Virus record (IMG/VR): IMGVR_UViG_3300010262_000137
Location: 1-64,000 of that record
Origin: a virus
Taxonomy: Duplodnaviria > Caudoviricetes
Direction: 5' to 3' (one strand)
Length of the DNA stretch: 64,000 bases
Every line of letters begins with the position of its first letter. Within the stretch, counting starts at the first letter, position 1. The position numbers and the translations under genes were made by a program. Under the pieces are notes generated by a model. The model saw only the letters and a program-made list of their open reading frames with translations. It made no database searches and was not told where the DNA came from. This document shows, piece by piece, positions 49,602 through 55,008 of the stretch.

Positions 49602-49933
49602 TGAATGAAGCAAAGATAATCAATATGAACAAAGGAGCAAAGATTGACTATGAAATTATGGGAAATAAAATTATTTTCAATGACGAATTAATGTTGAATC
49701 TTGCTAAGTATGAGCGTGATGACCCTATGCATATTGATATATGCATGGATGAGTTTGGGTGTTTGTGTATGGGATTGGCTAACAATTATATTGCACAAAT
49801 TGATATTCCTGCTCGTGAATATGAGTTTGTTGAAGATGGTGTGGATGAAGAAGGAAAAACTAAATATAACAAGGTAGCAATTCCATTTGATATTAAAAAA
49901 GTAGTCATTACATTATGGGAGGTTGAAGAATAA
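49601..49933 (+). CDS. phage hypothetical protein
   Basis: Co-oriented, directly upstream of the DGR target. Confidence 0.55.
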   Translation: MNEAKIINMNKGAKIDYEIMGNKIIFNDELMLNLAKYERDDPMHIDICMDEFGCLCMGLANNYIAQIDIPAREYEFVEDGVDEEGKTKYNKVAIPFDIKKVVITLWEVEE

Positions 49934-51012
49934 TGGAAACAAATTTTGATGCGATCAAATTAGCAGTAGAAGCAGCTACTGGTGGAAAAAATACAGTATT
50001 ATTTGATGATTTAGGTAATCCTTCAATCATGGTTAGAATTCCTAAATTTAAAATTTCAGATGTAATCGCTGGTGGATCTAATTCTGTTCATCCTGCGTTT
50101 ATTGTAAATGGTGTAGAAAAAGATGAAATATTCATAAGTAAATATCAAAATATCGTAGTAAATGATCGAGCTTATTCTTTACCGATGCAAGATCCAAAAG
50201 CTTATATTGATTTTGATACAGCAAAAAAAGCCTGTGAAAACAAAGGTAAGGGTTGGCATCTAATGACAAACGCAGAATGGGCTGCAATTGCTTTATGGTG
50301 TAAAAAGAATGATTACTTCCCAAGAGGTAACAACAATTACGGAAGTGATGTATCTTACCCTCATGAAAAGGGTGTAGAAACATATAACTATGACGGTAAA
50401 ACTGGTAGAGTTGCTTCGGGTTCTGGGCCAGTTACATGGGCTCATGATGGTAGCAACTCAGGTATATTCGATTTAAATGGTAATGTTTGGGAATGGGTTG
50501 GAGGACTTCGTTTAGTTGATGGTGAAATCCAAGTCATCGCCGATAATAATGCAGCAAATGGTGCAGATATGACAGTGAATTCTAGTCATTGGAAAGCCAT
50601 TGATAAGAGTGGAAACTTAGTTGCTCCAAAATCAGCTAATACATTAAAGTTTGATTATACAGTAGATCCAGGTACTACAAATGTAGGAAAAGGAGTTCCA
50701 AAATTAGTAACAACTTTAACTCATCAACAAACAAGTGATGAACCATATGCAGCAGGACAATTTGAAGATATGACGGCAGATGATGGTATCACTCCACCAG
50801 AAATATTAAAGTCGTTAGCGATTTATCCTGAGGGAACAAAAGCAAATCATGGAGATTACATCTATATGAGAAATAAGGGAGAGCGTTTGCCTTTTCGTGG
50901 TGGCCTTTGGCATAACGGAAGCACTGCAGGCGTGTTCGCTTTGAATTTGCACAACCCACGCTCTTATGCTGACTATGATAGGGGTTTTCGCTCCGCTTTC
51001 GTAGGTCTGTAA
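49933..51012 (+). CDS. DGR target protein, FGE-sulfatase/C-type-lectin fold (probable receptor-binding protein)
   Basis: GWHLMTNAEWAAI, GIFDLNGNVWEW, C-terminal RGG.W...G.FA...GFRSA variable region. Confidence 0.9.
   Translation: METNFDAIKLAVEAATGGKNTVLFDDLGNPSIMVRIPKFKISDVIAGGSNSVHPAFIVNGVEKDEIFISKYQNIVVNDRAYSLPMQDPKAYIDFDTAKKACENKGKGWHLMTNAEWAAIALWCKKNDYFPRGNNNYGSDVSYPHEKGVETYNYDGKTGRVASGSGPVTWAHDGSNSGIFDLNGNVWEWVGGLRLVDGEIQVIADNNAANGADMTVNSSHWKAIDKSGNLVAPKSANTLKFDYTVDPGTTNVGKGVPKLVTTLTHQQTSDEPYAAGQFEDMTADDGITPPEILKSLAIYPEGTKANHGDYIYMRNKGERLPFRGGLWHNGSTAGVFALNLHNPRSYADYDRGFRSAFVGL
50890..50997 (+). repeat. DGR variable region (VR), 108 bp
   Basis: Colinear with three downstream repeats; encodes the last CLec strands. 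Confidence 0.92.
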
Positions 51013-51056: not shown

Positions 51057-51090
51057 TCCCACCAGCGATTTAGCTGGTGGGATTATTTTT
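51057..51090 (+). terminator. intrinsic terminator after the target gene
   Basis: TCCCACCAGC-GATTTA-GCTGGTGGGA followed by a T-rich tract. Confidence 0.7.
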
Positions 51091-51130: not shown

Positions 51131-51640
51131 GTGGTAATGATGGATAGTCAATTAGGATTGTATGAGACTCAGCTTGTCATACAGCAGGAGGTTTATGATA
51201 TGTTACTATATGCCTATCCGTTGTTAGATCATTTTCCAAAGAGTCAAAAATTCTCTTTAGTTCAAGATATCAAAAGAAGTATGGATTTAGTTCTTAAATA
51301 TGCAATTACTGCTAATAAAAAATACAGCAAGACTACAACGCTTGAAAAAATGGATGTAGAACTAGCTGCTTTAAAGGTTTATATAAGATTAGCATTTGAA
51401 TTGCATTTTTTTAAAGGCGAAAAGCACTATATGGAAATGTCTCGAAGATTAGATAAAGTCGGCAAGATGTTAGGTGGCTGGATTAAGGCTGAAAAAGAAA
51501 AATCAGGGAATAAAGCTATTGAAAAAACATATGTTTGCGAGAAATGCGGTGCAAAAATAACTCCTAAATCTTATGAATATTCAATAAGGAATTTTGGTAA
51601 ATCTCTTTGTTATGCATGTCAAAAAAGTCATAAGGATTAG
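51131..51640 (+). CDS. avd: Avd accessory protein with C-terminal zinc-finger extension
   Basis: FPKSQKFSL, LKVYIRLA, VGKMLGGWIK four-helix-bundle motifs; CEKC...CYAC tail. Confidence 0.88.
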   Translation: MVMMDSQLGLYETQLVIQQEVYDMLLYAYPLLDHFPKSQKFSLVQDIKRSMDLVLKYAITANKKYSKTTTLEKMDVELAALKVYIRLAFELHFFKGEKHYMEMSRRLDKVGKMLGGWIKAEKEKSGNKAIEKTYVCEKCGAKITPKSYEYSIRNFGKSLCYACQKSHKD

Positions 51641-51653
51641 ATGAATAGTGAGA

Positions 51654-51719
51654 ACTTTTCGTGTTGGCGTTGGATTCTGTACGCTTTGGCTCTGCTCTCC
51701 GAGAGGTTTTCGCTCCGCT
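51654..51719 (+). repeat. TR-like unit R0 (internally deleted, 66 bp)
   Basis: Keeps CTTTTCGTG 5' and AGGTTTTCGCTCCGCT 3' ends but is 42 bp shorter. Confidence 0.7.
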
Positions 51720-51761: not shown

Positions 51762-51869
51762 CCTTTTCGTGGTGGCTCTTTCAATAATTCTAGCAATGCA
51801 GGCGTGTTCGCTTTGAATTTGAACAACCCACGCTCCAACACTTGGAACAATCTAGGTTTTCGCTCCGCT
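51762..51869 (+). repeat. template repeat R1
   Basis: 108 bp colinear with VR; 9 AAY codons. Confidence 0.9.
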
Positions 51870-51900: not shown

Positions 51901-52008
51901 CCTTTTCGTGGTGGCGCTTTTTGGGAGCATTCGAATGCAGGCGTGTTCGAATTGAATCTGAATAACCCACGCTCTTATGCTGACAATGATAGAGGTTTTC
52001 GCTCCGCT
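51901..52008 (+). repeat. template repeat R2
   Basis: 108 bp colinear with VR; 5 AAY codons. Confidence 0.9.
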
Positions 52009-52049: not shown

Positions 52050-52157
52050 CCTTTTCGTGGTGGCAATTGGAATAACGGAAGCAATGCAGGCGTGTTCGCT
52101 GTAAACTTGAATAACCCACGCTCCAATTCCAATCACAATGTAGGTTTTCGCTCCGCT
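52050..52157 (+). repeat. template repeat R3 (most canonical TR, adjacent to the spacer)
   Basis: 108 bp colinear with VR; 10 AAY codons. Confidence 0.92.
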
Positions 52158-52320
52158 CTGCTCTTGCAATTAGGTATATGATGGATACGTCTGTCATTTC
52201 AAATCAAGGGAATAAAGGAGTCTAATTCCATGCTGAACAAGCAAAAAAATATATAAAGATGAAAACCGATTGTAATGTTAAATGAACTCCGTTAAGCATC
52301 TTAAAAATTAGGTGATGATC

Positions 52321-53475
52321 ATGGCGAAAATAAAGAATGTATATGACTATATCGTTAGTGATGAAAACATATACAATGCTTATTTGAACGCTCGCAAAAG
52401 CAAAAGATATAGAAAAGATGTACTCATATTTACTCAAAATCTATAAGCAAATCTAGTTAAGATTCAAAATGAATTAAGAAGCGAAGTTGTTGATTATCCT
52501 AAATATAGAGAGTTCTATATTTACGAACCAAAGTGTCGCTTGATTCTTGCTCAAGACTTTCCTGAAGTGATAAAACAGTGGGCGTTTTATCAAGTTTTAA
52601 GTCCTATGTTTACTAGGATGTACATCAAGGATTCTTATGCATGCATTAAAGGAAAAGGACAAATTGCAGCAATTAAAAGGCTTCATTATTGGCTTAAATT
52701 GGTCAATAGCAAAAGATACAATAAACTGAAAAACGGTTTAGATGTATCTGATTTAAACAAGTGGTATTACTTGAAAATAGACTTTAGCAAATACTTTTAT
52801 AGAGTAGATCATAAAGTCATGATTGATGCATTGAAGAAGAAAATTAAAGATGATCGTGTTGTTAGATGGCTTGAAACACGCATAGAAAGCCCTGATATGC
52901 CTTTTGGATTACCTAAAGGCATGCGTCCTGAAGATGTTGAAATGAGTGAACGTTTATATGATAAAGGAATGCCAGTAGGCGCTTTGGTTTCACAAATGTT
53001 AGCGAATGTTTACAATGATCAGATAGATCAATATGCTAAAAGGACATTAGGAATTAAGTATTATATACGCTATCAGGATGATATTGTGGTGCTTTGCGAT
53101 GATAAGAAACAAATAAAAGAATGGCATCATAAACTAGAGAAGTTCGCAAATGATGTCATGAAAATGGAAATGAACCAAAAGACCTGTATTAGACCAATCA
53201 ATCAAGGGATAGAATTTTGTGGTTTTCGCTTATGGGCTACACATATTAAAATAAGGAAAAGCACTTCCTTGAGAATTAAAAGGAACTTAAAAGGCGTGAT
53301 GAAACGATACAATGAAGGAGATTGTACTTTAGAACACGCTACGCAAGTAGTTAATTCATATTTTGGACTGCTGAAACATTGTAATAGTTATGCATTAAAA
53401 ACTGAAATATTTGGTGATTATGAAAAAGGAATAGATGGTTGGTTTGTACTGACTAGAAATCAAGGTAACGATTAA
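52321..53475 (+). pseudogene. DGR reverse transcriptase with in-frame TAA at codon 42
   Basis: MAKIKNVYDYIVSDENIYNAYLNARKSKRYR...NL*ANL...YEPKCRLI, YLKIDFSKYF, PVGALVSQ, YIRYQDD; stop at 52444-52446. Confidence 0.88.
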
Positions 53476-54024: not shown

Positions 54025-55008
54025 ATGGATTGGAAAAACTTAAATGCCGATGTCAATAAAATCATGAATAAACACTATACTAAGGGGCGTTCAGGACGAA
54101 AAATTGATAAAATAATCATCCATTATAACGCAGGTGATTTAACTGCAGAAGGATGTTATTCTGTATGGCAAAACAGAGCAGCTTCGGCACACTATCAAGT
54201 TGAATCTTCAGGTCGTATTGGACAATTGGTTTGGGATGGTGATACAGCATGGCATGCTGGCAACTGGGATGCCAACTGTTCAAGTATCGGAATTGAACAT
54301 GCAAATAAAGCAGGTGGATATATTAGTGAAGCATGCTTAGATGCAGGAGCTCATTTAGTTGCAGCATTATGTAAGTATTATGGATTGGGACGTCCTAAAT
54401 GGAAGGTAAATGTATTCCCTCATAATCATTTTGCAGCTACATCTTGTCCTGGTCGATTACAGGATGAGCAAAGAGATGCTTATATGCATAAAGCTCAACA
54501 ATGGTATGATCAAATGGTGAATGGGGTTGAAACTCCATCTAAACCAAGCGAACCATCTACAGGTAAAAAAACTAATGAGGAAGTAGCAAAAGAGGTTATT
54601 GCTGGCAAATGGGGTAATGGAAATGAACGTAAGAGCAGTTTGACAAGTGCTGGATACGATTATAATGTTATTCAATCGTTAGTAAATCAAATGTTAGGAA
54701 TTCCAACGTCTGATCCAAAACCAACAAAAACTATTGATCAGTTAGCGGATGAAGTTATTGCTGGCAAATGGGGTAATGGTGAAGAACGTAAAAATCGTTT
54801 AACCAAAGCAGGATACAATTATGATGCAGTTCAAGCGAAAGTTAATCAAAAATTACATGGAGTAAACAGTAACAAGTCCAATGAAACAATCGCTAGAGAA
54901 GTTATTGCTGGCAAATGGGGTAATGGAGCTGAACGTAAGAACCGATTAACAGCTGCAGGATATAACTATGATGCCATACAAAGTATTGTGAATAGTTTGT
55001 GTAAATAA
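54025..55008 (+). CDS. N-acetylmuramoyl-L-alanine amidase with three CW_7 repeats
   Basis: IIHYNAG, SAHY, AWHAG, SIGIE, ATSCPG; three EVIAGKWGNG.ERK..LT.AGY repeats. Confidence 0.92.
   Translation: MDWKNLNADVNKIMNKHYTKGRSGRKIDKIIIHYNAGDLTAEGCYSVWQNRAASAHYQVESSGRIGQLVWDGDTAWHAGNWDANCSSIGIEHANKAGGYISEACLDAGAHLVAALCKYYGLGRPKWKVNVFPHNHFAATSCPGRLQDEQRDAYMHKAQQWYDQMVNGVETPSKPSEPSTGKKTNEEVAKEVIAGKWGNGNERKSSLTSAGYDYNVIQSLVNQMLGIPTSDPKPTKTIDQLADEVIAGKWGNGEERKNRLTKAGYNYDAVQAKVNQKLHGVNSNKSNETIAREVIAGKWGNGAERKNRLTAAGYNYDAIQSIVNSLCK

Follow-up and report, generated by a model that had tools for sequence, protein, structure and literature searches.

In the usual account of diversity-generating retroelements (DGRs), one invariant template repeat (TR) feeds one or more variable repeats (VRs), and diversity is confined to the adenines of the template. 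The locus studied here raises the question of how a VR comes about when several divergent TRs lie beside it and none of them explains it alone. The locus is contained in a window of 64,000 nt, which corresponds to positions 1 to 64,000 of the IMG/VR record IMGVR_UViG_3300010262_000137, an 86-kb phage sequence estimated to be 97% complete. A first reading made from the letters of this window (the sequence-only reading) had proposed that the VR is a patchwork of three templates, produced by segmental retrohoming that shuffles template segments in addition to adenine mutagenesis. We followed up this proposal in the window itself, in related loci, and in population alleles of the target protein.

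Organization of the locus and composition of its variable repeat

The identification of the locus as a phage DGR was supported by the accessory protein Avd, the reverse transcriptase (RT), the RT-14 RNA, a hairpin, and the fold of the target protein, and every DGR feature that could be tested was found, with the exception of a single invariant template. The cassette, which is located downstream of baseplate genes (Baseplate_J and Gp48-like), has the order of target gene, hairpin and terminator, avd, tandem array of R0 to R3, RT-14 RNA, and RT (Table 1), and a blastn search of the cassette against 50,697 GenBank phage records gave no matches. An endolysin with an Amidase_2 domain and three CW_7 repeats is encoded at 54025-55008, and these CW_7 repeats account for the direct-repeat family D2 (54567-55002).

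Table 1. Coordinates of the elements of the DGR locus, as positions in the window.
Feature	Position	Strand	Remarks
DGR target gene, 359-aa tail-fibre-type variable protein with C-type-lectin/FGE fold	49933..51012	+	PF03781; phrog_2889 and a tail phrog
Variable repeat (VR)	50890..50997	+	codons 320-355 (last 36 of target gene); mosaic of R3, R1, R2
R3-to-R1 switch interval	50920..50940	+	holds invariant block GCAGGCGTGTTCG
R1-to-R2 switch interval	50953..50963	+	equals invariant block AACCCACGCTC
Hairpin TTGCCAC-GTGA-GTGGCAA	51035..51052	+	37 nt past VR
Terminator-like hairpin followed by T run	51057..51082	+	3' of target gene
avd accessory gene	51131..51640	+	PF22296; NF033474, 97.6 bits (cut-off 80)
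R0, decayed, internally deleted template unit	51656..51719	+	full length in L014, L033
R1, A-rich template repeat	51764..51869	+	window B donor; 51762-51869 in VR register
R2, template repeat	51903..52008	+	window C donor; 51901-52008 in VR register
R3, template repeat nearest RT	52052..52157	+	window A donor; 52050-52157 in VR register
Structured spacer RNA, Rfam RT-14, between R3 and RT	52161..52301	+	RF02921, 63.5 bits (gathering score 48.1)
DGR reverse transcriptase, 384 codons	52321..53475	+	YQDD intact; one in-frame TAA at 52444-52446

The AlphaFold model of the target protein (pLDDT 85) matched TaqVP of Thermus aquaticus (5vf4) with a TM of 0.9 and 41% identity, and the VR lies, as a DGR would have it, inside the C-type-lectin/FGE-fold domain at the C-terminus. 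The RT was assigned by its RVT_1 domain, by phrog_1423 (E 1e-112), and by the presence of a ...GALVSQ... motif, and the closest solved RT was 8ub7 (E 1e-37), which we take to be the bRT of BPP-1 and which scored much better than the RTs of group II introns and retrons. At the position of the in-frame TAA, GAA (Glu) was found in 16 of the 16 relatives with a readable RT start, and the 384-aa frame of the relatives is open; the nonsense codon in the window represents either a recent inactivation or a sequencing error. Because the RT carries this codon, the mosaic VR of this phage probably preserves events of the past, and diversification would have ceased here unless the stop is a sequencing error. 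The Avd protein has an extra CxxC-N18-CxxC arrangement, which is zinc-ribbon-like, in its C-terminal tail (residues ~125-169).

The match to the RT-14 RNA spans the full length of RF02921. A single copy of this RNA, an orphan "RT motif", accompanies the four template units and is found where BPP-1 has RT-10/Sp. The RT-14 motif class has been proposed as serving DGRs (PMC5737381). An inspection by eye of the 3' anchor shared by the repeats against the RT-14 RNA revealed no convincing complementarity. The template units R0 to R3 are all colinear with the single VR, and R1, R2, and R3 are mutually divergent. R0, which is full length and very adenine-poor in L014/L033 (L014:4156-4286), looks like the fossil of a mutagenised copy. 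R1 is flanked on both sides in a VR-like manner, by AGCGTTTG on the 5' side and GCTTT on the 3' side. At 50998, the first base past the transferred region, T is shared by R1 and all VRs, whereas R0, R2, and R3 have C; this difference resembles that between IMH and IMH* and may mark the recipient. The 7-bp stem of the hairpin downstream of the VR is kept in all relatives, with loops of GTGA, GTAA, GCAA, or GCTA, making it a candidate for the target-recognition hairpin/cruciform of DGRs, which has been described with a stem of 7-10 bp and a 4-nt GRNA loop (PMC3240598).

No single repeat explains the VR, as the sequence-only reading had noted. Ungapped comparison gave 16 non-adenine mismatches against R1, 16 against R2, and 11 against R3, and the same three windows were recovered as had been described: window A (50905-50925) is R3 with four changes, window B (50938-50952) is R1 with one change, and window C (50962-50982) is R2 with two changes. 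All seven changes are at template adenines, with 7 of 25 adenine sites and none of 81 non-adenine sites being changed along the mosaic path, and the adenine-only relationship between TR and VR appears only under the mosaic reading, with 11-16 non-adenine mismatches remaining against any one TR. In a switch test using 30 informative sites, all of them compatible with one TR or more, as few as 2 donor switches were needed, compared with a mean of 11.8 and a minimum of 3 in 20,000 shuffles of the column order (0/20,000 reached 2).

Two parts of the mosaic call for a more cautious description. Window B is thinly based, as had been admitted from the beginning, with two to three discriminating sites (50941, 50946, 50947, and 50952). 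R2 as its donor would need two non-adenine changes within 14 nt, against a pooled non-adenine rate of 0.4% per site in the VRs described below. The claim that the switches fall in blocks shared by all repeats held insofar as the switch intervals contain the two invariant blocks (Table 1), but this placement is to some extent unavoidable, since only stretches lacking informative sites can accommodate a switch. Likewise, the 5' flank AGCGTTTG does match R1 as claimed, but there was no sign that R1 templated it. It is constant in the VRs of all relatives, whichever TR was used, and thus reflects the longer target homology of R1.

Template use among relatives and population alleles

RT-based and pattern-based scans for relatives yielded 6 viral loci, 13 human-gut metagenome loci, and 3 genome loci, the last from Eubacterium sp. 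TM05-53, the isolate Holdemanella sp. MSK.7.32, and a Holdemanella MAG, and 3 more contigs were reached via target-protein alleles. The relatives belong to human-gut Holdemanella phages, and arrays of two to four TR units were found in all of them. A 1-kb contig that looks like an assembly chimera (L025) was left out, and the donors of L023, of which the VR has a 1-nt deletion, were assigned by eye only. This deletion (L023:3443-3573, reverse-complement) is in window B relative to the donor TR and would shift the last ~20 codons of the target.

The 14 distinct VRs with their own arrays comprised 5 derived from a single TR and 9 mosaics. Single-donor VRs, all in relatives with intact 384-aa RTs, were found for R3 (L010), R2 (L026 and L027), and R1 (L014/L033 and L031), with adenine-only changes in each case apart from one extra non-adenine change in L031. 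Since single-TR VRs exist for R1, R2, and R3, every TR is competent, even those that do not adjoin the spacer RNA. The donors of the mosaics, in the 5' to 3' order, were R3, R1, and R2 in the window; R2, R1, and R2 in L021; R2 and R3 in L028; R3 and R2 in both L127 and the isolate Holdemanella sp. MSK.7.32 (L034); R1 and R3 in L126; R1' and R3 in L035; T3 and T4 in L013; and T2 and T4 in L029. Because the RT of the clade of L013 and L029 is only 77% identical, mosaicism is no quirk of a single lineage. In the VR of L127, an R2-specific T is present in block 2, alongside windows B and C of R2. When the 14 VRs were pooled, 121 of 308 template-adenine sites were changed, compared with 5 of 1176 non-adenine sites, which bears out the view that the adenine-only residue favours passage through the RT over plain gene conversion.

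The same pattern extended to natural populations. The 90%-identity clusters of the target protein have hundreds to 1,558 distinct members each, and 31 distinct VR alleles from the clade of the window were classified among the members listed, via the residues encoded at non-adenine positions. The classes were xWxxGxx for R3, [GS]FxxSSx for R1, and AFWxxSx for R2 in window A, and xxWxxx for R1, xS[DGAV]x[DGAV][RGSCW] for R2, and xSx[HPRL]x[AV] for R3 in window C. All nine combinations of window A and window C were found among the 31 protein alleles. Together with the 9 mosaics among the 14 VRs at the DNA level, this confirms that windows assort freely in populations. With regard to a single hidden TR, which would have undermined the mosaic, no extra TR-like unit was present in the 86-kb phage record or, outside the cassette, in the host genomes of three relatives, including two with mosaic VRs. 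A search of 301 sampled host-family genomes for the RT family (E <= 1e-30) gave hits in only 3 and added no new loci.

Among about 75 more distant phage DGRs, those with an RT identity of 41-48% have the usual single TR, and several clades at 49-51% have TR arrays. L055 carries a VR and four TRs, and its VR goes back to an internal unit, differing from it only at adenines and at one 5'-anchor position that mismatches every TR. Arrays of four to five units are present in L049-L053, and the array of three TRs in L061 gave no clean resolution of its VR into donors. The CxxC tail of Avd is present in multi-TR clades (the clade of the window, L048, L049/L050, and L055) and in the single-TR locus L054, and it is missing in about 30 single-TR relatives and in the three-TR locus L061; its association with multi-TR arrays may simply follow phylogeny. 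Target homologues with 76-81% identity (P0177, P0178, P0191, P0192, and P0219) were also observed in genomes of Amedibacterium intestinale, [Clostridium] innocuum, and Coprobacillus, which are presumably Erysipelotrichaceae, and their VR alleles show several alternative scaffolds per window. Phages that infect these hosts may therefore commonly carry template libraries.

R1 acts not only as a donor. It templates VRs in L014, L031, and L126, and window B in the present VR. In L022, however, the R1 slot (L022:745-875, reverse-complement), which has R1 flanks on both sides, contains a whole-unit copy of R2 in which changes affect 8 of 21 adenines and no non-adenine site, and in the R1 slot of L010 (L010:4307-4437), again with R1 flanks on both sides, only window A is a mutagenised copy of window A of R2. 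Both slots are unlike the current VRs of their loci. These findings suggest that a template unit may itself be a target of retrohoming. It is conceivable, and we offer this tentatively and with some doubt, that the array is a writable library, in which R1 would receive mutagenised cDNA of R2 or R3 and become a new heritable template, so that templates would evolve by retrohoming. If this is true, R1 and R2 would be used at 140-290 nt from the sole RT-14 RNA, and priming or the choice of cDNA would then occur at a distance via the shared anchor. An adenine bias among TR orthologues, as a sign of self-homing, was not clearly above expectation in R3, where 7 of 10 variable sites involve A.

How the segments may have been transferred

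Taken together, it is very probable that a DGR with a tandem library of three usable TRs (R1, R2, and R3) and a decayed R0 rewrites one VR segmentally, and we are more confident still that segmental transfer of some kind depends on the RT. The proposal of segmental retrohoming with shuffling thus gains support from the assortment in populations, the absence of a hidden single TR, and the adenine-specific residue. Because each segment shows the adenine-only pattern when set against the TR in the same genome, the data point to passage of every segment through the RT.

In the mechanism that we propose, the RNA of a TR would be copied by the RT into an adenine-mutagenised cDNA, which would overwrite the VR. 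The 3' limit of the transfer would be in the shared anchor GGTTTTCGCTCCGCT, just ahead of the T/C position 50998. Since 50998 is T in all VRs, whatever the donor of window C, the transfer appears to end inside this anchor, and in BPP-1, the 3' boundary maps to a (GC)14 element, which precedes the IMH differences (PMC3240598). A 5' limit at the 5' anchor would result in a rewrite of the whole VR, and a 5' limit at either of the invariant internal blocks (13 or 11 nt) would result in a partial one. In BPP-1, 5' cDNA integration requires only at least 8 bp of identity and may use internal cryptic sites (PMC3240598), and invariant blocks of 11-13 nt provide this identity. Any TR could act as a donor, and different windows of the VR could have been last written by different TRs, which here would be R3, R1, and R2. 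We lean slightly toward the segments having arrived via successive partial retrohoming events, each of which would replace the part of the VR between the 3' anchor and a 5' junction of variable position, with older donors remaining in the 5' windows. The VR of L127 fits three such nested events, with an R1-specific G in the 5' anchor, window A from R3, and windows B and C from R2.

There are, however, observations that argue against strict 3' anchoring, namely, the R1 slot of L010, in which only the 5' window was overwritten, and the R2, R1, and R2 pattern of L021, in which the second junction has no shared interval. It follows from these two cases that patchy incorporation or recombination also occurs. 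The integration step has been described as unresolved, possibly involving the annealing of cDNA to an exposed single-stranded target (PMC12875486), which would allow patchy incorporation. A further point against successive retrohoming as the best explanation is that the sole RT-14 spacer RNA adjoins R3, yet R1 and R2 serve as templates.

Static sequences of this kind would be compatible with separate events or with one chimeric cDNA. The latter could be generated by copy-choice, if the RT jumps between TRs at the invariant blocks, on the same or another transcript, and the chimeric cDNA replaces the whole VR once. This would equally leave adenine-only changes in every segment and junction intervals that coincide with the identical blocks of 11-13 nt, and the junction in L021 with essentially no shared interval suits an RT jump better than homology-driven integration; moreover, one proposal for 5' integration is itself template switching (PMC3240598). 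Nevertheless, the donor order has no direction along the array, the 5' part being from the upstream TR in five mosaics and from the downstream TR in four, so that processive jumping on a single transcript would not, in its simple form, suffice. In addition, for the VR in the window, the RT would have had to jump from R2 to R1 and then, in the reverse direction, from R1 to R3. We regard copy-choice as rather unlikely for these reasons. Recombination independent of the RT, by which VRs from single TRs would have been formed first and their windows then shuffled, either with the VR of a co-infecting phage or with the array, seems improbable to a greater degree. When compared with the TR in its genome, each segment retains the adenine-only signature; most VRs are mosaics (9/14); the VR in the window requires two crossovers within 45 nt; and a crossover would have an interval of only 11-21 nt, a length sufficient for DGR 5' integration but short for RecA-type exchange. 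What speaks for recombination is that R1, sharing 23 nt of 5' flank with the VR, would be an especially suited partner, that window A of L035 is R1 with 0 of 8 adenines changed and could be the product of an exchange between the VR and R1, and that the array does recombine, as seen in L035, whose array is one unit shorter and includes a hybrid of R1 and R2. Furthermore, the target runs into the 3' flank of R1, with avd and the units in between missing, in L012:1649-2731 and L019:8388-9479, and protein-level fusions of the target to R1 or R3 flanks were found (P0003 and P0123; R3 in P0123), but assembly collapse may explain some of these contigs.

With regard to these structures themselves, the hybrid unit (L035:3444-3574) has the 5' flank and windows A and B of R1 and window C and the 3' flank of R2, and represents unequal recombination within the array. 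The fusions in L012, L019, P0003, and P0123 are either real deletion derivatives between VR and TR or assembly collapses across repeats. The existence of hybrid units, in L035 and in the R1 slots of L010 and L022, also lends something to the idea that a single hybrid TR with the R3, R1, and R2 segments was lost or unsampled. None was present in the 97%-complete record, in about 25 related arrays, or in the host genomes. A contig mis-joined across repeats would be the technical counterpart of this idea, but the shared blocks are at most 15 nt, below assembler k-mers, the segments differ from the TRs at adenines and are not a copy-paste of TR reads, and a like mosaic is present in an isolate genome (L034). 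A lost hybrid template or a mis-joined contig is thus very improbable as the source of the VR.

Implications and comparison with known systems

Transfer from several templates means that, in this locus, non-adenine scaffold residues vary too. Three segments of the binding surface and three templates give 27 combinations, each of which is adenine-mutagenised. DGR software and surveys that require adenine-only mismatches to one TR would call such VRs decayed or drop the locus. The mosaics are also natural markers for the cDNA integration step, with respect to the sites of 5' junctions and the priming of templates far from the spacer RNA, and the isolate Holdemanella sp. MSK.7.32, which has an intact copy with a mosaic VR, allows direct testing. 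In addition, multi-template arrays could serve engineered DGR mutagenesis.

Among known systems, the DGR of BPP-1 (mtd VR, avd, TR, and brt) is similar to the present locus in the order of target, avd, TR, spacer RNA, and RT, in the adenine-specific transfer from TR to VR, and in the position of the VR at the C-terminus of a receptor-binding protein with a C-type-lectin fold. The two also share a 3' boundary in a shared GC-rich anchor that is followed by a putative IMH/IMH*-like difference, and a GC-rich hairpin with a 4-nt loop downstream of the VR. Unlike BPP-1, which has one TR, the present locus has three to four divergent tandem TRs and a patchwork VR, uses TRs far from the spacer RNA, has an R1 with a VR-type flank that was overwritten in some relatives, and encodes an Avd with an added zinc-ribbon-like tail. 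One invariant TR as the sole master, which is characteristic of the canonical single-template system, is lacking here, as each TR is the full donor in some relative and the R1 slot was overwritten in L022 and L010. TaqVP of T. aquaticus (5vf4), for which the comparison concerns the protein only, has the same fold and its VR in the same C-terminal segment, and the DGR of T. aquaticus reportedly has one TR.

Multi-TR DGRs, which have been counted in published surveys, resemble the present locus in having more than one TR per RT, but in these, each TR is paired with its own VR or the cases were set aside, and non-adenine mismatches were taken as decay, as for the several TR/VR pairs of a crAss-like phage (PMC12386605). 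The passages of large DGR surveys that were retrieved by keywords related to TRs make no mention of multiple TRs, and a literature search for mosaic or multi-template VRs, or VRs with a shared-target library, found no description. The closest likeness in the mode of rewriting is with Borrelia vlsE, Neisseria pilE/pilS, and the pseudo-V genes of chicken Ig, where an expressed site is rewritten segmentally from adjacent silent, colinear, and divergent cassettes with junctions in conserved framework blocks, and where, in chicken Ig, point mutation is added on top. In those systems, DNA is moved by recombination without an RT, and a system of the vlsE/pilS type would give faithful copies with no base bias, whereas the present segments each have an adenine-only signature (121/308 versus 5/1176) and are accompanied by the RT, Avd, the spacer RNA, and all other DGR parts. 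The present locus therefore resembles immunoglobulin pseudogene conversion combined with hypermutation, yet it is done with an RT.
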